Source: a virus. From it: a stretch of 64,000 bases of DNA. This document shows, piece after piece, positions 1-18,737 of this stretch. Both the position numbers and the translations under genes were made by a program. The notes under the pieces were generated by a model, which saw only the letters and a list, made by a program, of their open reading frames with translations, did not search any database and was not told where the DNA came from. The stretch covers positions 1 to 64,000 of IMG/VR virus record IMGVR_UViG_3300010403_000003, one strand, 5' to 3'. The first letter of the stretch is position 1, and the number at the start of each line of letters is the position of its first letter.

Positions 1-848
1 GGCATTTCCCGGCTCAACGGGTCGTGCTGTCGCCACTGGCTCGACGTATTTTCGTCGCCGCGCTTCCATACCCCCCAATCGCCGACGTTTTCGAAGCTCA
101 TGCTGCCGTGATGCAGGGTACGAATCTTGCTCGTGATGTAGGTTTTGGCTCCCAATTCCCAGAGTCGCCGCGAGAAATTCCAGTCTTCCGACTCCTGCAC
201 CCGCTGCCATTTACCAGCGCCGTCTCGGTAGACACGCTCCTCGAAGTTAAACATCGCCTTGAGACAGCCGCTCGCATCCGTTTCGCGCCACAACGGGGAT
301 TCCATGTTGAACAGGCAAAGCGCGTGATTGTGGAGCAGGAACTTATCGGCATACCCGATATCAGCGGCGCAAAAGGTTTCCGGAAATTTCTCGAACTCGT
401 TCGGGCAAAATCGTCGCCACGGGTTCCAGCGATTATTCGGGCTCCCAACGCCGCACGAGGTTGCGCCGGAAAAGGCGTCCTTGATAGCCATGGGGACGCT
501 GATAAAATCAGCGTTATACTTGTCCATCTCGTCGTTCAGCACATCGAGCCAACGCTCATAGACCTGAATGCCGCTATGATCGCACTGATCACACTTTTCC
601 CCATGGCAATCACGGCAAATCTCTTGCTTCTCGACGACATGCATGTCCGCGTGAATTTGCGCATGCCGGTCACAGAGTCCGTCGGCGGCGGCATTCAGAG
701 CGGCAACCAGGCAAGCGTTGTAATTTGGTCCGCTCAGGCAGGATGGCAGAATAGACACCTTGTGCTTGCGCGACGACAAAAAAGCAGCATGGGCCGATGT
801 CCATGACACGCTTCCGGAACTCGGCACACCGAGCAAAATGCGATGCAT
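1..848 (-). CDS. GT-A fold glycosyltransferase-like protein (runs off window end; missing from ORF track)
   Basis: Manual translation from ATG 848: MHRILLGVPSSG...AQIHADMHV (DxD-like)...CRDCHGEKCDQC insert...QESEDWNFSRRLWELGAKTYITSKIRTLHHG. Open to position 1. Confidence 0.7.
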   Translation of the reverse strand, partial: MHRILLGVPSSGSVSWTSAHAAFLSSRKHKVSILPSCLSGPNYNACLVAALNAAADGLCDRHAQIHADMHVVEKQEICRDCHGEKCDQCDHSGIQVYERWLDVLNDEMDKYNADFISVPMAIKDAFSGATSCGVGSPNNRWNPWRRFCPNEFEKFPETFCAADIGYADKFLLHNHALCLFNMESPLWRETDASGCLKAMFNFEERVYRDGAGKWQRVQESEDWNFSRRLWELGAKTYITSKIRTLHHGSMSFENVGDWGVWKRGDENTSSQWRQHDPLSREM

Positions 849-858
849 GTCGGCCCCT

Positions 859-1365
859 TCACTGTGGATAGAGATTGGCCTGCTTTAGCGTACGAACAAC
901 GTCGCTAAAGTTCATGAACGTACTGCCCAGATTGCCGTTTGAATTCATGTTGACCGCGTTGGCGTTCGTTGCTGCGTTCCCATTCATGCCGACAAGAAGC
1001 CCGCTGCTCGCGGGGGACACAACAGGCGTCACATAGGTGCTTGAGAATCTAACGGTCTGCGTAGCGTCCGCATCAGCAGACGCGCCAACAGTCACACCCA
1101 AAGGAAGACCGTCGCCGGAGCTGGTAGAGACAATTGACGACCCGGCATTCCAATAAACGCCAACGCCATCCGCAATCGCCGACCCGCCCGATGTTGACTT
1201 TGGAAAACTGACGACCCCTTCAACGCACAATTCGCCAGCGACGTTGGCCGGGATATCACGCATCGCGACACCGACGCGAGATGTGGTAACGATGACATCG
1301 CCTTTGGATTTCGCCGTACCCGGCGTGTGGGAGATGACAAGCGTGCATTGCAGGACGGTGGCCAT
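859..1365 (-). CDS. DUF2190-like capsid cement/decoration protein
   Basis: HTPGTAKSKGDVIV..VGVAMRDIPANVAGELCVEGVVSFPK..GVGVYWNA pattern; GAGGA before ATG 1365; downstream of MCP. Confidence 0.75.
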   Translation of the reverse strand: MATVLQCTLVISHTPGTAKSKGDVIVTTSRVGVAMRDIPANVAGELCVEGVVSFPKSTSGGSAIADGVGVYWNAGSSIVSTSSGDGLPLGVTVGASADADATQTVRFSSTYVTPVVSPASSGLLVGMNGNAATNANAVNMNSNGNLGSTFMNFSDVVRTLKQANLYPQ

Positions 1366-1397
1366 TGCCGTTTCCTCTGAGATTCTGCTGGACGGCG

Positions 1398-1817
1398 TTA
1401 GGCCGCATTGCTCACGAGCTTGATCTGATGCCGCGGCCGGTCGGCATCGATGCCGGTGATACCGGAGATTTTGTCGTAGCGCCCCTGGGCCTCTTCCGGG
1501 GACCGTGCGGGAATGAGCAGGCTCAAATGCCCCGGAACCTGGACCGAATAACGGTCTTTGGTGTCCTTGCCCCAAAGGCGCTCGGCAGCCTCCTGCGTTC
1601 GCTGTTGCGGCGGCTTCGAAAGCTCGGCCTTCCACCGTTCGAATTCCTCTTCCCGGTCCTGCTCGCGCCGAAGCGGCATGGCGACGGGGCGCTCCACGGA
1701 GATCGTCCGCTGGAGGTTATTGACTGTGGCGGTGAGATCGGCGACTTGCTGCATGAGGGCCGCGACGTCGGGCGACACCACTGCTGACGGTTCCTTGGTC
1801 TTGTTCGGTTCGGCCAT
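1398..1817 (-). CDS. hypothetical head-associated protein
   Basis: ORF with GGAG before ATG 1817, directly after the capsid gene. Confidence 0.6.
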   Translation of the reverse strand: MAEPNKTKEPSAVVSPDVAALMQQVADLTATVNNLQRTISVERPVAMPLRREQDREEEFERWKAELSKPPQQRTQEAAERLWGKDTKDRYSVQVPGHLSLLIPARSPEEAQGRYDKISGITGIDADRPRHQIKLVSNAA

Positions 1818-1830
1818 TGCGAAAGGCTCC

Positions 1831-1875
1831 AAAAGAAAACCCCCAGCCCGGCCGGTAGATAAGCCGAACCGGGGG
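1831..1875 (-). terminator. Rho-independent terminator after major capsid gene
   Basis: Minus strand CCCCCGGTTCGGCT-loop-GGCCGGGCTGGGGG followed by TTTTCTTTT. Confidence 0.7.
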
Positions 1876-1891
1876 AGCGAAGGATGGTCTG

Positions 1892-3070
1892 TTACGGCAA
1901 CGAGGAAGAAACGTACCGCGGCTCAATGACGCCCACCACGTCGCGCGTCGAAATCTTGGTCCGCGCCCAGATGTCGCGGTCGAACTTCATCTGGTTGTTG
2001 TCGGCCGCCTGCGTGATTTCCTTGTCCCAGTTGTAGTAGCGCCGGAAAGCCCGCTTGAAGTCGCCAAAGAACCACTTCGTGGCCGATCCGGTACGAGCCT
2101 TGACGTAAGCATTGCTCATCACGTTGTAGCGCGGCCCGCCATAAAACCCGGTCTCCATGGGGTTCGCACCGATGGTGCGAATCGTGGTGGCCGACGCCGT
2201 GTTATCGACGTGCTGGACTTCGCTGGCTTGGAGGATGCGGTTCGCGGTTCGCTTGAGCGCGGAAGGAACGATGAGGCTCGCGGCCCGCAGCATGACCGGC
2301 TCGCCCGTATTCGGGTCCGTAATGGCGTCGAACAGCAACTCGGCCGTCTGGACCGACGTCCAATCGGTGAGACCATTGCCGCTCGCCAAGGCGTTGATAT
2401 AACTGCCGGACGTCAGATAGGTATTGGTCGCCACGCCGTTCCGCTTGTAGCTATTCACGACTCCGAAGACGACATCAAGGCCGCGCTTTTCGAGTTCGAG
2501 GCCGTAGCTATACCCGAGGTCTTTGGCCTCGTCCAGCACCTTGCCCGTCATGTCGAATTCGACGGCCTCGCGCGTCACGTTGGTGATGAGCCCCTTCTTG
2601 GTCGTCGGTGCAATATCGATGTATTCTTCGTTCGGCCCGGCCGTCGGGTAGAGTTCGCCCTCGCCAACCGCGCCAATTTTGTCGCCGACCTTGCCGACAC
2701 CGGGGATGCGCTCGCCGTAGGGGAACGGCGATTGCCGCGAATCGACGAGATTTGGAAAGATGAACTCAGGGGAAGCCATCGCCTCCTTGATCTCGGTGAA
2801 CATAATCTGGCCGGTGATGTTCGCGAACGCCGAGAGGTCGGTGGCGTCGGCCGCTTCCAAGAGTGGGATTGACCGACCGCTCTTGCGGTAGTTGCTCGTC
2901 ACGCGAATGAATTCCGCGCCGCCGGGAACGAGCGACTCGAAGAGACCTTGAAACGAGAAGTCCCGCGGCTTGATCGCGCCGGATTCGATCGCCTCAACGA
3001 GCCGGACCTGGCAACCCTGCGGGTCTTGTTCGAACTCACGCTGGAGTTGCGGGTATTTCAGAACGCCCAT
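1892..3070 (-). CDS. major capsid protein (HK97 fold, Mu gpT-like)
   Basis: 392 aa; VGEGELYP..KKGLITNVTREAVEFD..LIVPSALKRTA..KWFFGDFK..VGVIEPRYV; AGGAGAGG RBS; position in head module. Confidence 0.9.
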   Translation of the reverse strand: MGVLKYPQLQREFEQDPQGCQVRLVEAIESGAIKPRDFSFQGLFESLVPGGAEFIRVTSNYRKSGRSIPLLEAADATDLSAFANITGQIMFTEIKEAMASPEFIFPNLVDSRQSPFPYGERIPGVGKVGDKIGAVGEGELYPTAGPNEEYIDIAPTTKKGLITNVTREAVEFDMTGKVLDEAKDLGYSYGLELEKRGLDVVFGVVNSYKRNGVATNTYLTSGSYINALASGNGLTDWTSVQTAELLFDAITDPNTGEPVMLRAASLIVPSALKRTANRILQASEVQHVDNTASATTIRTIGANPMETGFYGGPRYNVMSNAYVKARTGSATKWFFGDFKRAFRRYYNWDKEITQAADNNQMKFDRDIWARTKISTRDVVGVIEPRYVSSSLP

Positions 3071-3126
3071 GGTCGTTTCCTCTCCTGAACCGTGAATTCG
3101 TGAAACGTCTCTCGGTGCGAAATCTC

Positions 3127-3867
3127 TTAACGGGCCTGGTAGGCCGCAAGTCGGTCGATGAGCATAAGTTGCGTCGTCGCCGTTCCGCCGGCCTTGACGC
3201 CCGCGCCGACCATCATTTCGGTCGCGTTCGTGTAGGTGAAACTGATCTTGATTGGGACGTTGCGGGCCGTCTGGGCGGCGTCATAAAGCGGGACCATGCC
3301 GCTGCCCGAATCGGCGAAGAACGCGGCCTCGGCAATCGTGGCGTTGATGGGGCGAATTTCAATGCGGAGCGTCTGGTAAGCCGCGCCGCCCGCCGTGAGC
3401 GTGCTCGTAAGGATCGTCTGCGTGGTGCCGATCGACACCATGCACTTCCAGACGGTACTGCCGTCAACCTTGAAGATCGCGGCCCCGCTGAAAGAAGTCT
3501 TCACGCCCGCGCCGTTATCGACCATGAAGTCGGCCGCGATGGCGTCCGAGAAGGCGAAGAACACATTGGCCGTATTGTTCGCCCCGGTGACGGCCTCGGT
3601 GTATTGCAGCTTGCATTCGCCTTCAATCGGCTTGTTCGCGGCGATGAGGAAGATTTCCTTCGTCGTCGCGAGATAAACTTCGTTGTTGTCGGTCGCGCCC
3701 GTGGTGAGCGTGATGACGCCGCCGGCCGCATCGCCTGCCGCCGCGGTGCCGTCGCCGACGAGCGTCCAAAGGTGCGGGGAGATGTACCAAAGGAAGTCGT
3801 CATCGAGGCCGAAGGTGTGCTTGCCGACATGGAAGGACTGCGGCAGTTGCAACGTGCTCATTCCCAT
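3127..3867 (-). CDS. putative head decoration/auxiliary protein
   Basis: 246-aa beta-rich ORF between the protease-scaffold and MCP genes. Confidence 0.6.
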   Translation of the reverse strand: MGMSTLQLPQSFHVGKHTFGLDDDFLWYISPHLWTLVGDGTAAAGDAAGGVITLTTGATDNNEVYLATTKEIFLIAANKPIEGECKLQYTEAVTGANNTANVFFAFSDAIAADFMVDNGAGVKTSFSGAAIFKVDGSTVWKCMVSIGTTQTILTSTLTAGGAAYQTLRIEIRPINATIAEAAFFADSGSGMVPLYDAAQTARNVPIKISFTYTNATEMMVGAGVKAGGTATTQLMLIDRLAAYQAR

Positions 3868-3930
3868 GATCGTTTCCCCTTACCCTGTCTCTGTTTCGGT
3901 GACTTCGATGCCGGTGATTTCGGGCGGCGT

Positions 3931-5106
3931 TTAGCCGAAGATGCGGGACAGGAATTCCTTGCTGTCCTTCGCGGGGCCGGTCGGCTGGCCCTTCGATTCG
4001 AGCAGCGACGCGGACGAGTTCGAACGGGGGCCTTTGGCGGGAGCGGTGGGGACCGGTTTGGTCGCGGCCTTCTCCTCGGTGATGAACGCCTTCCGCTCGG
4101 CTTCGGGCAGATTCATCAGCGCCGTGAACTTGACCGGCGACGGACGGTATTCGAGCGATTCGCAAAGCGTGCGAACGGCGTCCTTATCGCGGAGTTTCTT
4201 GACTTCGGCTTCGAGGGATTCCATCTTGTCCTCTTTCTTTGGCTCAGCAGCCTCGCCGCCTTCCGCCGCGTCCTCCGGAGGGGTTTCCGTCGGCGGGGCC
4301 GCGTCGCTGGCGTCGTCGAGGATCGCCAAAATCTGATTGATCTTTTTCTTCTTCTTGGCCGCGTCGATTGTGTCGTCGGACATGAACGCGGTCACGGCGC
4401 GGGCCAGGTGCGTCGCGGCGTCCTCGTCTTCGGGGGCCACGACCGGGGCCGCCGTCTCGGCTGGGGCATCGCCACCCGCGAAGCCGTCCATTTCGAGCAG
4501 CGGCTTGGCCGCGCGGGCACTGATGCCGAGTTCTTCAAGCGTTTCGAGAAAGGTTTTTCCCGGCATGTGCGTCTCCCGCGATTCGTAAAGCCCCCGCGTC
4601 GTGGCAGGGTCGCACACGATGTCGATGGAGCGAACTTTGTCGATGGATTCGATGATCTGTTTGCGGCCCTTCATGCGGCCGGTGCCGAAAGCGTTCTGAC
4701 TGAGGCCGAAGGCGGTTGGATGGTGCTCGGCCCAATCGGCGACGAGTTGAAAGTTGGGTGATTGCGGCGGGCCTTGTAAATCTCCGTAGACTCCGTCCGG
4801 CTCTACGGTACAATTCGAATAGACGCCCGCGAGATCGCGCAGGGACCGTTCCGCTTTTGCGTTCCGGTTGGCCGGATGGTCGATGTAGGCTTTGCGGCCT
4901 TCCATCAGTTTGGCCGCGCTCTCAAGCGCCGTGTCGCTGTACTCGGTGCCGTCGCAGTCCTTCCGGCCGTGCTTGTTTGGGGATGATCGGCCCAGCATCT
5001 TGACGCGGCGGATAACGCCGGTCGCGCGGTCAACCTCGTGCGTTTTGCCGTCGATGACTGCTTCGCAGAGTTCGATGCGCGTCAAAGTCTTTGACCGTGT
5101 GGCCAT
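3931..5106 (-). CDS. prohead maturation protease-scaffold fusion (T4 gp21-like serine protease)
   Basis: YIDHP (His), FGLSQNAFG (Ser), SIDIVCDPAT (Asp) motifs, then an acidic Ala/Pro-rich scaffold region. Confidence 0.8.
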   Translation of the reverse strand: MATRSKTLTRIELCEAVIDGKTHEVDRATGVIRRVKMLGRSSPNKHGRKDCDGTEYSDTALESAAKLMEGRKAYIDHPANRNAKAERSLRDLAGVYSNCTVEPDGVYGDLQGPPQSPNFQLVADWAEHHPTAFGLSQNAFGTGRMKGRKQIIESIDKVRSIDIVCDPATTRGLYESRETHMPGKTFLETLEELGISARAAKPLLEMDGFAGGDAPAETAAPVVAPEDEDAATHLARAVTAFMSDDTIDAAKKKKKINQILAILDDASDAAPPTETPPEDAAEGGEAAEPKKEDKMESLEAEVKKLRDKDAVRTLCESLEYRPSPVKFTALMNLPEAERKAFITEEKAATKPVPTAPAKGPRSNSSASLLESKGQPTGPAKDSKEFLSRIFG

Positions 5107-5142
5107 AAGCCGAGCATAAAAATTGCTTGGTTGTTGATTCAA
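5107..5142 (-). promoter_or_regulatory. putative leaderless late promoter
   Basis: TTGAAT CAACAACC N10 TATGCT N6 ATG. Confidence 0.6.
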
Positions 5143-5163
5143 ACGAAGGGGAGCGAAGGACTG

Positions 5164-5523
5164 ATGGCTACGCGACTCGATCATTTCCCGCACGTCTGGA
5201 TTCCGGTCCCGCCCGAAGTGGAGGCGTATGTCGATTCCGCGCGATTCACCTATCACACCAGCACGCCGGATTGCCAAATCACGATCACGATGAACCCGGC
5301 CTTCGACATTCGCTGGTGCGGCGAAATGCGAGCCACGGAACAAGAACTGAAAGAGGCTCAGGTCGGCGGTGTCTGGAAAGGCTCGCGCCCAAAGTATTGG
5401 GACGAGACAGAAGAATGTTGGCGATTTGACGAACCCGGCAAATATGTGCCGTTGGGGGCCGTAGTCGTTAGGACGTTAGCTCAAAAGATACAAGCGAGGG
5501 GAGTTTCATGGACGCCGATATAA
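5164..5523 (+). CDS. hypothetical protein
   Basis: First gene of a coupled plus-strand cassette. Confidence 0.6.
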   Translation: MATRLDHFPHVWIPVPPEVEAYVDSARFTYHTSTPDCQITITMNPAFDIRWCGEMRATEQELKEAQVGGVWKGSRPKYWDETEECWRFDEPGKYVPLGAVVVRTLAQKIQARGVSWTPI

Positions 5524-13753: not shown

Positions 13754-15040
13754 TTACTGCGTCAACTCTTGGCTAGGTAGAAGTGATGCGAGGACGACGG
13801 CGTCGGCCTTATCGGGCGACCGATTGTTCGGCAGCCGCTTCTTGATATCGTCCTTCTTCTCAATGATAACGAGGCCCCCAGGCGATTTCCACGTCGGCGC
13901 ACAAAGCTCTTGCAAAAGCTCTCGGTCGGGCGGCAACGCCACTTCGAAGCCGTTCGCAGGGTCAAGCAATTCTCTAAAGGACCAATAAGCAAACGCTCTT
14001 ACGTTGCGAAAACTCAAGATGCCGGTGCGGTCCCGCGCCTTCGTCCGAACACCGAAGTCGATCCCAAAGGCATTCATGCCCGCCTGCCCGCAAGCCTCGG
14101 CGGCCGGCGCACCGTAACCGATGCAATCCACGAGCACCATCGCCCCCGGCCACACTCGCAACGCTTCCTTGATCTTGAGCGCCGCCATGGCCCCGCTCGG
14201 CGTCTGGCTCCCTTCGTAGCAAATTAACTCCCCGAACCAGTGCCGATGACGCGGGGCGAGAATAGTGCGATCGGCCCCACCGTGCGCGATGTCGCAGCCG
14301 AGCGCGTCCATCGGTTCGCCGCGGTGCCCGTCCGGCGTCCAGCGCTCTTGGGCAATGCGGACCCACGATTCGGGGATGACTTGGGAGCTGTCGTCCTCGG
14401 CAACGAACTCGCCACCGAGTTCCTGACGGGCGAAGTTGCCGGTGTAGACCTTGGCGAGATTCGAAGCGAAATCTTGATGGACGAACGGGTTATCGGATGT
14501 CTTGGCGTGGAAGATTTCTGTGTTGGGTTGCTGTGTGCCGAAGGCGTCGTATGTCCAGTGGGCTAACCCTTTTGGGGTCATTGTCGCTGTCAAGAATCCC
14601 AACTCGCCTTTCTCACGGAGCGAACCGAGTACGATCTCATAGGCTGCCTGGTCCATCAGCGAAGCTTCGTCGAGCCATGCGCCGGAGAGATTTGGTCCGC
14701 GAAGCGTCTCCGGGTTTTCCGTCGAGCGAAAGCGAATCACCTGCCCCTCGGTGAGCGTCACGTTAGGATGCGGCGTCATCCGTGCCGACCGCCATACGCC
14801 AATCTCTTGAGCAAGAGTGCGGAACGTCGGCAGCGTCGTATCTTCGAGAATGGTATAGGTAGGCGAACAGACGATATAGGTGCGGCCGGGGCGGGCGCGA
14901 ATAATCAAATCGTAAGCACCGACCCACGACTTGCCAGAACCGCGACCAGCGACGAAACCGCGCCGCAATGCCTTACTCTGCCGGAATCTCGCTTGCTCCC
15001 GGTAGAGTTTGATCCGCAGCGTCACCCTGTCCTGGCTCAA
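13754..15040 (-). CDS. terL: terminase large subunit
   Basis: Walker A AGRGSGKS, Walker B AWLDEAS, TMTPKG, nuclease LGCDIA..D, RSPDKADA. Confidence 0.95.
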   Translation of the reverse strand: MSQDRVTLRIKLYREQARFRQSKALRRGFVAGRGSGKSWVGAYDLIIRARPGRTYIVCSPTYTILEDTTLPTFRTLAQEIGVWRSARMTPHPNVTLTEGQVIRFRSTENPETLRGPNLSGAWLDEASLMDQAAYEIVLGSLREKGELGFLTATMTPKGLAHWTYDAFGTQQPNTEIFHAKTSDNPFVHQDFASNLAKVYTGNFARQELGGEFVAEDDSSQVIPESWVRIAQERWTPDGHRGEPMDALGCDIAHGGADRTILAPRHRHWFGELICYEGSQTPSGAMAALKIKEALRVWPGAMVLVDCIGYGAPAAEACGQAGMNAFGIDFGVRTKARDRTGILSFRNVRAFAYWSFRELLDPANGFEVALPPDRELLQELCAPTWKSPGGLVIIEKKDDIKKRLPNNRSPDKADAVVLASLLPSQELTQ

Positions 15041-15368
15041 CGACTTCCTCGATGATGGTCAGTTTCTTCGCTTCGTTGATGTCGAGTTCTTGTTTCTCGA
15101 AATACCCCCGGTCCTTGCCGAGTGTCATGAGCGTCCGGTTGATGGCCCACGGTTCGTTCCTCTTCACGGCCGCGATCAGCCGCAACTCGGCCTCATCGAC
15201 GAACTCGCCGCGCTGCATCTTTATTTCGGCTGCGACCTTCGGGCAAGACTTGGCCCTTAATGAAATCGTTTCATGGTTGCAGCCGAGATGTCGCGCCGCG
15301 AGGTAAACCATTCCCTTCGTGTGCTTTAGGGCGGCGAGTATTTCCTCGTTGGTGTAACGGCGCGCCAT
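14973..15368 (-). CDS. terS: terminase small subunit
   Basis: HTH N-terminus (EILAALKHTKGMVYLAARHLGC), LGKDRGY; immediately upstream of TerL. Confidence 0.75.
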   Translation of the reverse strand: MARRYTNEEILAALKHTKGMVYLAARHLGCNHETISLRAKSCPKVAAEIKMQRGEFVDEAELRLIAAVKRNEPWAINRTLMTLGKDRGYFEKQELDINEAKKLTIIEEVVEPGQGDAADQTLPGASEIPAE

Positions 15369-15414: not shown

Positions 15415-16297
15415 CTATTCGCTAGGCGATTCTTCAACATCACCCATTTCGACAGGCCCGCACGCCGCCGTCGCTTTCTTGGGGTCGCCCTTGACGAACA
15501 CAAGCACGTTTTGATGCGTCTTGCCAAGCTTCCGCCCGCTCTCGAATTGCCGCCCTACGCGAATCGGCAGGGAGCCAACGGACGTAATGAGGACAGCGTC
15601 ATTGTACAGTTTAGCCCCGGCATCTTGAAACGCCGCTATCGTGTCGCTGATGAAATTTCGGTACATGCCTTTCTTGTCGCGAACATCGCCGACGACGAAG
15701 CACGCGAAGCGGTCCTCGGCCAGCATGGCGACGCTCGCGGCGACGATTTCCCGGTAAGCGGCAAGGAACGCCGCGTAATCGAGCGTTGAAAGGTCCGCCG
15801 GGTCGTCGCTGTAAACCTCAAGATCGGCGTAGGGCGGGCATGAGAAAACGAGGTCGTATTGGCCGGGTGCGAGCGTCGCAACGTTGCGGCTGTCGCCCAC
15901 GATCCATCGCGGCGGGTTCTCGGGCGTGATCGTGGCCGCTTGCTGCTCGTTCGCGGCGATTTGCTCCGGGCGCAGATCGATCCCGGTGTATTTCCGCCCC
16001 AGCTTGGCGGCCACGATGCCGCGCACGGAGCCACCGGCGAATGGGTCGAGGACAGCGCCACCGGGCGGGCAGAACCATCGATAGGCTAACTCACAGAGAA
16101 CGGGGTCGAAGATTGATGTGCCTGATTGCTCAGCGCACATGCCCCCCCCCCCCGATATCTCCACTGGCGATTTTGTCGTTGACCCACTCTCGAGTGTTGA
16201 TGTTGAGGCTTCTTGGCACTTTGCCCCCCCCCTGTTTGAAGTTTGCGGCCAAATCACCAGGAGCTCCGCTGCCAAACGTCCGCGCGTTTTTTCCCAT
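15415..16297 (-). CDS. amino-type DNA methyltransferase catalytic half; frameshifted at a G12 tract
   Basis: GTSIFDPVLCE, VLDPFAGGS (SAM binding), SCPPY (catalytic). The ATG 16297 frame stops just after G12 (16142-16153); G11 would fuse it in frame. Alternative ATG at 16140. Confidence 0.85.
16142..16153 (-). repeat. poly-G12 homopolymer (further G9 tracts at 16224-16232 and 17449-17457; AG repeat at 17364-17376)
   Basis: Counted directly. Confidence 0.95.
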
Positions 16298-16340
16298 CTG
16301 GAGTTGCCCGCTTACGTCTAGGTGCTAAACTCTGGTCACC

Positions 16341-16547
16341 ATGAAACCGCACGAACGCCGCCAATGTGACGCCTATCCCTATTTTAAGCTGGCCGCCTGG
16401 GATGCCCGCTCATTTACGTTTCGCGATGGCAAGCAAGCCCACCCTAGCGAGTCCGCTGCCAAGCAAGAGGCCCGAAAGCCCGGCAAGTATCGCGTGAGCG
16501 TCGTCACCGCCGCAGGGCGAACTGATCTTGAGCCGTTCGCCATTTGA
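16341..16547 (+). CDS. hypothetical protein
   Basis: 68 aa, fills the gap between MTase and PLP genes; TAAACT upstream. Confidence 0.55.
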   Translation: MKPHERRQCDAYPYFKLAAWDARSFTFRDGKQAHPSESAAKQEARKPGKYRVSVVTAAGRTDLEPFAI

Positions 16548-16548
16548 A

Positions 16549-17229
16549 TCACTTCGCGACATTCCAGAACAGTGCCCCCGGCGATGCGTACTGGCGAATA
16601 AACCGCCACGCTTTCGCGTCATAATTCGCGCACGACGGAAATGGCGGCGGATGCTTTGCTGGGTCGTCAAACTTTTCTGGTGCGTTCCAGATTGCCGCCC
16701 GCCCAACATTCGGCATCGCTCCGATTCGCACGGCATGAAAGCGGGCATTCGGCCACGCTTTTTGCAAGCTGAGCGAGAGCGTTCCGCTACCCGCGACAGT
16801 CCAAACCTCGGCCGGCTCTTCGATTTGCTGCGCGAGCTCCGCGATTGCCAAGCGGATCGCCGGCGTATCCAAGCCGAACGGCAGCAACTTCGCCCCGCTG
16901 ACGCTACAATAATCCGCCGCACGCTTGCGGACGACGCTCATATAGCCGGCTGGCCCCACTTCGATGATTTTCGCGCCGGCCGCGATAGCTTCAAGCGTTC
17001 GCGGGTGCTTTGCCTTGCGTGCGGCACAAAAGATCGTTGCACGCTTGCCATAATCGCGGGCGCAATAAGCGAGGGCGACTTGGGCATAGCCTTGAACCGG
17101 CGAGGCATACACATATTCGGAATGCGAATCAAAGAGAATTGGAACGACGCGGGCCTTCGTGCCGCCCTCTACAACGTCGTCGCGAACTACGCGGATGCCG
17201 GCGATGTCGTCAATCCTGACCGGCAGCAT
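16549..17229 (-). CDS. PLP-dependent enzyme, fold type II (ACC deaminase/cysteine synthase-like)
   Basis: VRDDVVEGGTKAR (PLP Lys), VAGSGTL phosphate loop, NYDAKAW. Confidence 0.75.
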   Translation of the reverse strand: MLPVRIDDIAGIRVVRDDVVEGGTKARVVPILFDSHSEYVYASPVQGYAQVALAYCARDYGKRATIFCAARKAKHPRTLEAIAAGAKIIEVGPAGYMSVVRKRAADYCSVSGAKLLPFGLDTPAIRLAIAELAQQIEEPAEVWTVAGSGTLSLSLQKAWPNARFHAVRIGAMPNVGRAAIWNAPEKFDDPAKHPPPFPSCANYDAKAWRFIRQYASPGALFWNVAK

Positions 17230-18061
17230 TCAGCGGCCTACCTTTCCCGTCCCCGCGAACCGTTCGGCCGTCTTTGCCGAGTTTCATTGCCGGCCTTGCG
17301 CTGCCCCCTGGGCATACGCGGCCTTGCGCTGCATCGGGTCGTTGTGCATCGCCATCTTTACCGTCTCTCTCTCTCTGAATATCCGCCAGCGTGCCCGATT
17401 GTTCCGCCTTGTCGCTTGATTGTGGCGGCATCGCTGTAATCGTGGACGCCCCCCCCCGTCCTATTTCGCTTTGAATGCCCAAAGACAGCCACGCCCGCTT
17501 GCGATCCTGCCAATAGCCTTGGCGGGCGTCGAGCACGCTGAAAGGCGGCACAAGAAAGCGGTCAGCCAAAGTCTTTGCGGCCTCAGATGGGTCCATGCCG
17601 CCCCCGCCCTCTTGGCTTGCAAGGATTCCACTGTCCGCTGCCAATCCCGCCAGCATCGCGTTCAAGGCTTCATTGTCCGTCTGGAAGCTATCGAGCAGCG
17701 CTTTAAGCTTTTCAGCATCGGCGGTAGCAAGGGCTGCGAGCGGATCGACGGAGGCCAACATCAACTTCGCCTCCTCATCGTTCAAATCGAGCACTTCGAC
17801 GGTGACCTCCATATCTGGCGTCATCTCCTGCCGCAAATGCCCATCGACAAGCTTCAGCCGCCCATCGGGCAGTTCGTAAGCCAACAGCGACCTGGCAAAG
17901 CCGATCTCGTCGTAAAGCCCTTGGAGTGCGGCTCGTTGCTCGTCGGGATGGCGTCTGAAATTTTGCTCGTGCGGGACAAGATCGCCTGCCCGGATCGTGA
18001 CGTGCCTCTTGATGCGGTTGCGAATTGCGGGTTCTGGTTTCGCGGCTTTCTTGCGTGCCAT
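17210..18061 (-). CDS. ParB/Srx-like domain plus N-terminal portion of a phage DNA methyltransferase
   Basis: LVPHEQNFRRH..IGFA..LVDGHLR; TLADRFLVPPFSVLDARQGYWQDRKRAWLSLGIQSEIGR; TTGAAC-N17-TAGAGT-N7-ATG. Confidence 0.8.
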   Translation of the reverse strand: MARKKAAKPEPAIRNRIKRHVTIRAGDLVPHEQNFRRHPDEQRAALQGLYDEIGFARSLLAYELPDGRLKLVDGHLRQEMTPDMEVTVEVLDLNDEEAKLMLASVDPLAALATADAEKLKALLDSFQTDNEALNAMLAGLAADSGILASQEGGGGMDPSEAAKTLADRFLVPPFSVLDARQGYWQDRKRAWLSLGIQSEIGRGGASTITAMPPQSSDKAEQSGTLADIQRERDGKDGDAQRPDAAQGRVCPGGSARPAMKLGKDGRTVRGDGKGRPLNAAGQD

Positions 18062-18071
18062 AGCCTCAACT

Positions 18072-18443
18072 CTACCGCCCCGCGTCACCGGGTTCAAGTG
18101 GCGAGAGCGTTATGCGATTCCACGCCTGGACTGCTTCGAGCTTGGTTAGCCGGTGCGGCCCCACAAGGCACGGCTTGGGTTCAGCGCATTGCACGAGCCA
18201 ATGGCTCGAACCGTATGACGAAAGATGCGATCGGCCTCCGCAAAACGGACAAGCTTGCGGCGTCGGCTCGGCGTTGGGGTCGGTGGCGGTGAAGCCGTAG
18301 CTAATATGCCAGACTTCGTTTTCACCAAGATCGTCTTCCAGCCAAAGGTGTTCGCCATGCTGGGCAATGACTTTCTTGGGTTTTCCGCTCGCGTGTCCAT
18401 CGACCGTATGCCACACCGTCTGCCCAGGCTTGAACTCGCTCAT
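18072..18443 (-). CDS. Lar-family restriction alleviation-like zinc finger protein
   Basis: QACPFCGG..VQC..C..EAVQAWNR. Confidence 0.7.
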   Translation of the reverse strand: MSEFKPGQTVWHTVDGHASGKPKKVIAQHGEHLWLEDDLGENEVWHISYGFTATDPNAEPTPQACPFCGGRSHLSSYGSSHWLVQCAEPKPCLVGPHRLTKLEAVQAWNRITLSPLEPGDAGR

Positions 18444-18631
18444 ATTCTCTCGCTTTCTTTCGGAATAGCCCGCCCGCTCACAATCGCAACCTCGCGCGGC
18501 GTGAGTGTCTCCAGCCCGCGTTCGACGCGGCTGACGTGAACCGCGGAGCATTCCAGCTTGTCGGCCAGCATTTGCACGGTCATTCCGCGCGAGGTACGCC
18601 AATCGCGGAGGGAGGGCCAGTTGGGGATCAC
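18440..18631 (-). CDS. XRE-family HTH regulator
   Basis: LRDWRTSRGMTVQMLADKLECSAVHVSRVERG; upstream palindrome GTTAGC-acca-GCTAAC. Confidence 0.8.
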   Translation of the reverse strand: MIPNWPSLRDWRTSRGMTVQMLADKLECSAVHVSRVERGLETLTPREVAIVSGRAIPKESERI

Positions 18632-18737
18632 TCGAAGTTCTCCAACAAGTTAGCACCAGCTAACAAAACATTAAAACCGAACCAATTGCGGATAAATCGC
18701 GATCTCGTCCCGAATAGGAAGGGTTCACGGTCGCACA

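Follow-up and report, generated by a model that had tools for sequence, protein, structure and literature searches.

The subject of this analysis is a locus in the first 64 kb (64,000 nucleotides, hereafter the window) of IMG/VR virus record IMGVR_UViG_3300010403_000003, a complete virus genome of 74,016 bp with direct terminal repeats, recovered from a soil metagenome. At this locus a ParB-linked enzyme with an amino-methyltransferase fold is encoded in two pieces, and a gene for a pyridoxal phosphate (PLP) enzyme lies between them. Judging from the predicted proteins, the two enzyme families are fused or adjacent in many independent arrangements, from distant phages, and this pairing points to a DNA base modification so far undescribed. 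The explanation that we favor, tentatively and short of calling it probable, is that the locus represents, in three genes, a module widespread among phages, in which a ParB-linked amino-methyltransferase fold and a PLP enzyme of the M6 gp52/ViI gp226 family carry out a two-step modification. The locus comprises:

17210-18097, minus strand: N-half gene, 295 aa, with a ParB-like domain, the conserved N-terminal block of the methyltransferase (PPFSVLDARQGYWQDRKRAWLSLGIQSEIGRG) and a linker tail whose end is a conserved PGGSARPAMKLGKDGRTVRGDGKGRPL module
16549-17229, minus strand: PLP fold-type-II gene, 226 aa, of the M6 gp52 family; predicted Schiff-base lysine Lys25 (GGTK), phosphate loop G147-S148-G149
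16341-16547, plus strand: opposite-strand open reading frame (ORF) of 68 codons, a candidate gene by ORF and GC composition only
16145-16297, minus strand: N-terminal part of the catalytic gene, conserved (MGKNARTFGSGAPGDL...RSLNINTREWVNDKIASGDIGGG), in a frame that differs from that of the core
15415-16140, minus strand: methyltransferase core, 241 aa from ATG 16140, with motif X GTSIFDPVLCE, motif I DPFAGGS and motif IV SCPPY, then DLEVYSDD
15415-16275, minus strand: C-half as listed ORF, matching phrog_498 and Pfam N6_N4_Mtase

The original prediction, made from the sequence of the window, had described an N-half, a PLP gene overlapping the N-half stop, an antisense ORF and a C-half, and each of these elements was found in its place. 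The N-half and C-half are two genes lying 934 nt apart. The PLP gene ATG is located 20 nt ahead of the N-half stop in another frame, which gives a 20-nt overlap, and the spacer of 251 nt between the PLP gene and the catalytic gene holds the plus-strand 68-codon ORF.

The PLP protein and its methyltransferase partner

The PLP protein matched phrog_7093 (1.4e-36, profile positions 17-278 of 279), the PHROG defined by gp52 of Pseudomonas phage M6 (2.2e-159), which ties it to the processing of amino acids on DNA bases, as had been proposed. Its identity to M6 gp52 was only ~24%. An hhalign comparison of the family profile with M6 gp52 extended nonetheless over the full length (98.6% probability, E 7e-16, 220 columns), and a C-terminal PFPS..YDxKAW..FWN motif was common to the PLP family and M6 gp52. 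Purified M6 gp52 and ViI gp226 decarboxylate C-alpha-glycinyl- and O-seryl-thymidine in polymeric DNA (Lee et al., NAR 2021, PMC8989533), and ViI gp226 was modelled in that work on the structure 1j0a. A direct sequence search of the PDB with the window protein gave no match, so that profile and fold searches were needed: the family profile found TrpB and CysK in the PDB at ~1e-5, and Foldseek of the AlphaFold2 (AF2) model, which had a predicted local distance difference test (pLDDT) score of 97, returned at a probability of 1.0 D-cysteine desulfhydrase 4d9e, the homologue 1j0a of ACC deaminase (ACC, 1-aminocyclopropane-1-carboxylate; template modelling score 0.83), threonine deaminase and CysK, all of them longer than the model by ~100 residues. 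In Pfam, the window protein scored 23.4 bits against PALP (PF00291), under the gathering cut-off of 35, and family relatives scored 42-46 bits. Residues K25 (GGTK), G22, G23 and G147-S148-G149 were at least 90% conserved in an alignment of 96 sequences, and the K25 region aligned with the TrpB lysine region. By these profile, fold and residue comparisons, the protein is homologous over its full length to a decarboxylase proven to act on amino acids linked to DNA, and it looks catalytically intact.

The ViI gp226 orthologue of Dickeya phage LIMEstone1 matched the family weakly by hhalign (28% probability), so that what connects the family to the ViI branch is Vincenzo gp2 (94% by hhalign) together with PHROG membership. 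In the tree, the window PLP protein fell in a clade with 98% support that mixes stand-alone and fused forms, with M6 gp52 outside it; the layouts of PLP and methyltransferase were interspersed, indicating repeated fusion and fission. Members of the same PLP family were also found fused to YunG-like (PF24585) and DUF3102 domains (P0272, P0283, P0301, P0266).

The N-half matched phrog_498, a ParB-DNA methyltransferase profile of 633 positions, at positions 32-205 and the C-half matched it at positions 355-613; phrog_12517 likewise spanned both halves, with only ~11 profile positions between them and a core match of 3e-108. Since both genes match one profile, they correspond to two parts of what is a single polypeptide elsewhere, and on these matches the N-half and the C-half are halves of one methyltransferase family. 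That the two blocks normally form one polypeptide had been expected, and the unsplit members bear it out: Listeria phage B054 gp77, Enterococcus phage phiFL3A gp36, halovirus HCTV-2 gp11 and Erythrobacter phage R6L gp1. The C-half scored 47 bits (3.4e-12) against Pfam N6_N4_Mtase, whose cut-off is 26.7. The ParB-like domain of the N-half had no Pfam match at E <= 0.1; it was recognized through phrog_15396 (1.6e-15), phrog_620 and BLAST matches to the ParB parts of fused homologues, and the N-half tail module aligned with the linkers of the unsplit homologues P0162, P0190, P0155 and P0225.

Motifs GTSIFDP, DPFAGGS and SCPPY are present in unpermuted order, and the window enzyme has 0 changes in 72 conserved columns, defined as the methyltransferase positions at least 95% conserved in the fusions. 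The core aligned with PDB 2zie in swapped order (the motif I part with residues 222-273, the motif IV part with residues 23-104), indicating that it is the unpermuted counterpart of the beta-class enzymes, and the insertion point of the PLP domain in the fusions coincides with that permutation joint. Its PDB neighbors were ordinary beta-class amino-methyltransferases, among them 2zie, CcrM and M.PvuII. Across the whole family, motif IV (window ~15700-15720) is CPPY, a Cys taking the place of the Asp, Asn or Ser usual in amino-methyltransferases, and is followed by a conserved acidic DLE.YSDD; members that lack a PLP domain share both CPPY and DLE.YSDD.

The split form is clearly common among relatives and not a one-off insertion. 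Among the closest core homologues listed (n = 119, 66-82% identity), 101 were core-only and 7 unsplit, a ratio that is biased because the search took proteins of 157-501 aa and disfavored long unsplit forms; 21 of the 119 begin at the same (K/R)xFG motif. In Microcystis phage Mae-JY30 the enzyme is split at the same linker, so that ParB, methyltransferase and PLP are three genes, and the methyltransferase starts MAKGKARTFG. Single-protein scans of viral and metagenome contigs returned only relatives of <= 53% identity. The nesting of the PLP gene in a split gene, noted in the original prediction, is no special structure: the same parts occur in no fewer than five arrangements, and relatives often have split core genes.

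Eighteen of the top 150 PLP family clusters were fused to this methyltransferase, in four layouts. The PLP domain was inserted between motifs I-II and III-IV in R6L gp1, ZS04 and Pam4_70, for example, and in 12 of the top 150 clusters, fused at the C-terminus in P0276 and P0381, and fused at the N-terminus in P0380; the PLP enzyme was encoded just downstream in Mae-JY30 and between the halves in the window. Two clusters were ParB-PLP fusions. About 95 of the 120 best matches to one inserted fusion (~95/120) carried both Pfam domains, many of them on contigs of 58-72 kb, and stand-alone PLP and core proteins from two top-120 lists lay on contigs of equal size (3336, 3751, 8269, 12654 and 39932 nt). 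In the mycobacteriophages Vincenzo and AlanGrant, gene 1 is the ParB-methyltransferase and gene 2 the PLP enzyme, followed by terS and terL, and Vincenzo gene 2 belongs to phrog_3650, the PHROG of the ViI gp226 orthologue (2.7e-106). As pairings of both the M6 type and the ViI type were seen, both characterized decarboxylase branches pair with this methyltransferase. The original prediction had named a lack of co-occurrence in other phages as grounds for refutation; the two families were instead fused or adjacent in many lineages.

In 97 fusions, the PLP lysine, the GSG loop and methyltransferase motifs X, I and IV were all invariant. Cultured examples include Erythrobacter phages R6L and ZS04, Pseudanabaena phage Pam4, Microcystis phage Mae-JY30 and mycobacteriophage Vincenzo. 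R6L ORF 1 (3032-5443) holds a 226-residue PLP domain inserted in the methyltransferase core; the R6L paper describes it as a single-domain CcrM-like methylase, predicted to recognize GANTC. At least six cultured phages carry such genes under the annotations 'methylase', 'ParB' or 'carboxylate deaminase', the last of these being that of gene 2 in Vincenzo (region 1-3152), whose AlanGrant counterpart is called 'nucleoside deaminase'.

On marine viral contigs, the PLP gene had distant members of this methyltransferase family (phrog_12517 matches) ~2 kb away. Further PLP neighbors on these contigs were a TET-associated glycosyltransferase, an HD protein, a dUTPase, a lyase of S-adenosylmethionine (SAM), a 2-oxoglutarate (2OG)-dependent dioxygenase, an HNH gene and large ORFs of unknown function. 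Three of the contigs (L004 337-8483, L011 694-8688 and L013 2841-8721) look like more hypermodification clusters; the methyltransferase-like match there ends at the ORF end.

The canonical partners of the characterized PLP decarboxylases were searched for in the complete 74-kb genome, which held no amino-acid:DNA transferase (AADT, PF18724), no kinase of 5-hydroxymethyl-dU (5-hmdU) in DNA (PF18748) and no thymidylate-synthase homologue or dUMP hydroxymethylase (PF00303). Phage M6, the positive control, matched both PF18724 and PF18748, and neither family was found in R6L, Pam4, Mae-JY30 or Vincenzo. The absence of kinase and transferase, first remarked for the window, therefore extends to the whole genome, and with the canonical partners absent the substrate cannot be a conjugate derived from 5-hmdU.

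Simple repeats and neighboring genes

Four simple repeats lie within the coding sequence of this enzyme:

16142-16153, minus (coding) strand: G12 tract; catalytic gene frameshifted as assembled, in frame with G11 or G8
16224-16232, minus (coding) strand: G9 tract in the catalytic gene, within its conserved N-terminal segment
17449-17457, minus (coding) strand: G9 tract directly after the conserved GRG of the N-half
17364-17375, minus strand: (AG)6 tract in the N-half linker

The G12 and the two G9 tracts are the only G/C runs of at least 7 in the 64-kb window, (AG)6 is its only dinucleotide repeat of at least 5 units, and all four lie in the linker of this one enzyme. In a three-frame translation, ATG 16297 opens MGKNARTFGSGAPGDL...RSLNINTREWVNDKIASGDIGGGG and runs into a stop three codons past the G12 tract; the core resumes in another frame as GGGMCAEQSGTSIFDPV. 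Homologue N-termini matched 16145-16297 by tblastn (P0198 2e-15, P0161 5e-15, P0124 4e-14, P0160 3e-14), and P0124, P0161, P0198, P0160 and P0169 aligned to the first frame before G12 and to the second after it (E 1e-11 to 1e-15). The C-half of the original prediction holds up, with a different beginning: its conserved start is ATG 16297 (MGKNARTFG...), out of frame with the core at G12, a frameshift that had been overlooked. The ATG right after G12 gives the 241-aa core, like the stand-alone homologues P0134, P0210 and P0240. Between the 17449 G9 tract and (AG)6, a stretch of 25 residues was homologous in a non-annotated frame (P0213 E 6e-6; P0224 E 1e-3), and after (AG)6 the homology was back in the annotated frame, which carries the conserved tail module.

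The Logan contigs of the probable source run, an independent assembly, stop at 16153 and restart at 16139, that is, they break at G12, so that the tract length in the record is not secure. A 151-nt contig from a different soil sample had G8 for the G9 at 17449, at a depth of 3 that could reflect error; the other runs with matches gave only short, mostly diverged pieces. In this phage a full-length catalytic subunit would depend on the length of the G12 tract, and the tract as assembled is compatible with a sequencing error, a dead gene or a phase switch.

The genes that flank the locus are:

18072-18656, minus strand: Lar-like ORF (PF14354 23.1 bits, below the cut-off of 28.6; phrog_599 1e-4), overlapping the N-half start
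14973-15368, minus strand: putative terS, 131 aa, by position only, between methyltransferase and terL
13754-15040, minus strand: terL (Terminase_6N 1.2e-12; phrog_2 5.7e-43)

The C-half stop codon is separated from the terL start by 375 nt with one small ORF in between, the putative terS, which had no family match except a weak helix-turn-helix match and overlaps the terL start by 68 nt. The Lar-like match of 18072-18656 (restriction alleviation zinc-ribbon) is weak; if real, the locus would be an anti-restriction cluster. For the 68-codon ORF, GC at codon positions 1/2/3 was 0.64/0.52/0.64, similar to real genes; no homologue was found in phages, Pfam or PHROGs, and Atlas matches were sub-threshold (< 0.9). 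The start of the catalytic gene lies 43 nt (16298-16340) from that of this diverging ORF, a layout typical of a small regulator and its target, and promoter and terminator scans gave nothing beyond chance, with no promoter-like site in the 16298-16340 gap.

A candidate pathway and its alternatives

It is probable that the two enzymes share one DNA-modification pathway. With the PLP protein in the PHROG of M6 gp52, PLP processing of the product of a SAM-dependent transfer is the most economical reading. A PLP enzyme requires a free primary alpha-amine, and to our knowledge 3-amino-3-carboxypropyl (acp) is the only SAM-donated group that carries a free alpha-amino acid; taken together with the precedent of decarboxylation on DNA, this suggests acp transfer followed by decarboxylation. 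In such a pathway, the N-half (ParB plus DNA-recognition block) and the catalytic C-half would assemble on replicated phage DNA near the packaging machinery, the methyltransferase fold would flip a base and move the SAM-derived 3-amino-3-carboxypropyl group onto its exocyclic amine, and the PLP enzyme would decarboxylate the transferred group, leaving an aminopropyl base whose cationic amine would hinder host nucleases. In a sub-variant, the PLP enzyme would decarboxylate SAM first and the fold would then transfer aminopropyl, with the same product. That the product is a base of the acp or aminopropyl type, a chemistry that we infer, is a tentative proposal. Broader still, and doubtful as it stands, is the possibility that widespread phages (soil and marine phages, cyanophages, actinophages) make an aminopropylated exocyclic-amine base by means of a methyltransferase fold and a PLP decarboxylase, poly-G-switched in the present phage. 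The original prediction had spoken of packaging-coupled modification: the position beside the terminase genes was confirmed, and placement by terS and terL fits the ParB-terminase locus already described (PMC4738411), but a mechanistic link to packaging does not follow from it.

Several observations weigh against a two-step modification of DNA. The PLP-less B054 gp77, phiFL3A gp36 and HCTV-2 gp11 (~50% identity) keep 65-67 of the 72 conserved columns, and in a comparison with these three PLP-less sequences no residue of motifs X, I or IV separated PLP-linked from PLP-less methyltransferases; the same motifs in both kinds of member leave room for plain methylation, and in a family that did no more than methylate, no DNA substrate would be obvious for the PLP enzyme. 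Decarboxylases do not usually have fold type II, M6 gp52 and ViI gp226 being the only precedents. The AF2 model of the natural fusion P0254, in which both domains were confident, the two junctions were of low confidence and the domain orientation was not fixed (predicted template modelling score 0.64), gives no predicted composite active site. The catalytic gene is frameshifted as assembled in this phage.

On one alternative account, the enzyme would be an ordinary m6A (N6-methyladenine) or m4C (N4-methylcytosine) methyltransferase of the ParB-terminase locus and the PLP enzyme would act on a small molecule linked to it (for example SAM, S-adenosylhomocysteine or an amino acid) and not on DNA, tuning or protecting methylation or starving host SAM-dependent defenses. 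Plain methylation is favored by catalytic motifs that PLP-less and PLP-linked members share and by the ordinary beta-class enzymes among the PDB neighbors, and a metabolite role by one marine contig in which the PLP gene stands beside a SAM lyase and a dUTPase, both metabolite-directed genes. We nevertheless consider this account unlikely, as the nearest characterized PLP relatives act on DNA-bound amino acids and not on metabolites, the PLP domain has repeatedly been inserted in frame while both active sites are invariant, which fits consecutive steps on one substrate better than a loose metabolic link, and destruction of SAM would starve the phage's own enzyme. Even if the family only methylates, the conserved PLP domain inside a methyltransferase still needs explaining. 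An insertion without functional tie to the methyltransferase (a selfish or hitch-hiking mobile cassette, or an intron- or intein-like element) might be imagined because the PLP gene lies between the halves and next to an opposite-strand ORF. The PLP gene was not found to be flanked by direct or inverted repeats, however, and the Rfam search of the locus gave no match and no intron-like RNA, on which grounds a mobile element, an intron and an intein were all rejected. The PLP gene starts at its own ATG, and stops in that frame lie just upstream of it; the same family is linked to the methyltransferase in five layouts across distant phages, so that this reading is close to refuted. The PLP gene is a gene of its own and bears no sign of mobile insertion.

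The remaining alternatives concern the state of the module in this phage. Decay, with the methyltransferase in pieces, the catalytic gene frameshifted and no DNA modification left, would agree with the +1 shift of frame at G12 that separates the conserved N-terminus from the core and with the linker segment whose homology is in a non-annotated frame; it is quite improbable given that every conserved block, the catalytic motifs and the PLP lysine are intact, with no change at the conserved columns, that the same split occurs in Mae-JY30 and ~100 close homologues, that translation from the ATG after G12 yields a core of the stand-alone type, and that the tract length is insecure where the independent assembly breaks. 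It is possible, if doubtful, that the G12, G9, G9 and (AG)6 tracts form a contingency (phase-variable) switch, in which slippage would turn the catalytic subunit on or off or alter the linker. Such a switch would add to the two-step modification that we favor and not exclude it, and progeny would hedge between classical and modification-dependent (type IV) restriction. The confinement of such tracts within 64 kb to this locus, the change of frame exactly at G12, the break of the Logan contigs there and the G8 variant of the 17449 tract in another soil sample are all consistent with it; the tract evidence consists, on the other hand, of contigs and not raw reads, the possibly erroneous low-depth G8 contig included, and G runs arise naturally from glycine-rich linkers.

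Comparison with known systems

By hypermodifying their DNA, phages defeat both restriction enzymes and CRISPR nucleases, and hypermodifications are also a source of DNA-labelling enzymes. All amino-acid-derived hypermodifications that we know of start from 5-hydroxymethyl-dU. In many phage lineages, the present pairing ties a tailoring enzyme of the 5-hmdU pathway to another installer, with an amino-methyltransferase fold. With M6 gp52 and ViI gp226 the window PLP protein has in common an N-terminal Schiff-base lysine and a 1j0a-like fold of type II, and with M6 gp52 it shares phrog_7093; it is likewise phage-encoded and presumably acts after replication. It differs in belonging to a separate clade (98%) and in that an enzyme of amino-methyltransferase fold replaces the dUMP hydroxymethylase, the 5-hmdU kinase and the amino-acid:DNA transferase.

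The transfer of parts of SAM other than methyl by SAM-binding folds, including the class I methyltransferase fold, is known from the acp transferases of RNA (TYW2/Taw2, Tsr3, TapT) and from aminopropyl transferases (spermidine synthase). Unlike the window family, to which they have no detectable specific relationship, these enzymes act on RNA or small molecules, and we know of no example of acp or aminopropyl modification of DNA. If the proposed pathway is true, it would be the first such modification of DNA and the first hypermodification route from a methyltransferase fold, and not from 5-hydroxymethylpyrimidines or 7-deazaguanine; if the product is a new base, DNA chemistry would gain a branch, and SAM-group transfer to DNA a new class.

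Phase-variable methyltransferases (phasevarions) and the poly-G contingency tracts of Campylobacter phages resemble the window locus in having, within the coding frame of a DNA-modification gene, a long G tract whose length sets the frame. Unlike in phasevarions, the evidence in the window consists of a contig break and one low-depth variant.

The ParB-terminase (ParB-Tls) locus of phages and prophages was described by Iyer, Zhang and Aravind (BioEssays 2016, PMC4738411). As in that locus, a ParB domain is linked in the window to an unpermuted amino-methyltransferase beside terS and terL; in contrast, the window enzyme is split in two genes and has a PLP partner, whereas ParB-Tls is described, in the texts consulted, as methylating and without mention of PLP. 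No description of a pairing with a PLP enzyme was found in the searchable literature; Iyer et al. 2013 (NAR 41:7635), cited in the 2016 article and outside that scope, may mention such loci. The carboxymethylcytosine pathway of Synechococcus phage S-B43 (CmoX/CmoA; Nat Commun 2025, PMC12783734) provides another parallel, as a phage DNA methyltransferase homologue, often accompanied by ParB-domain proteins, adds a non-methyl handle for tailoring. CmoX/CmoA differs from the window system in that the enzyme acts on C5 of cytosine and uses carboxy-SAM from CmoA, followed by an AMP-forming ligase and without a PLP enzyme (PMC12783734).

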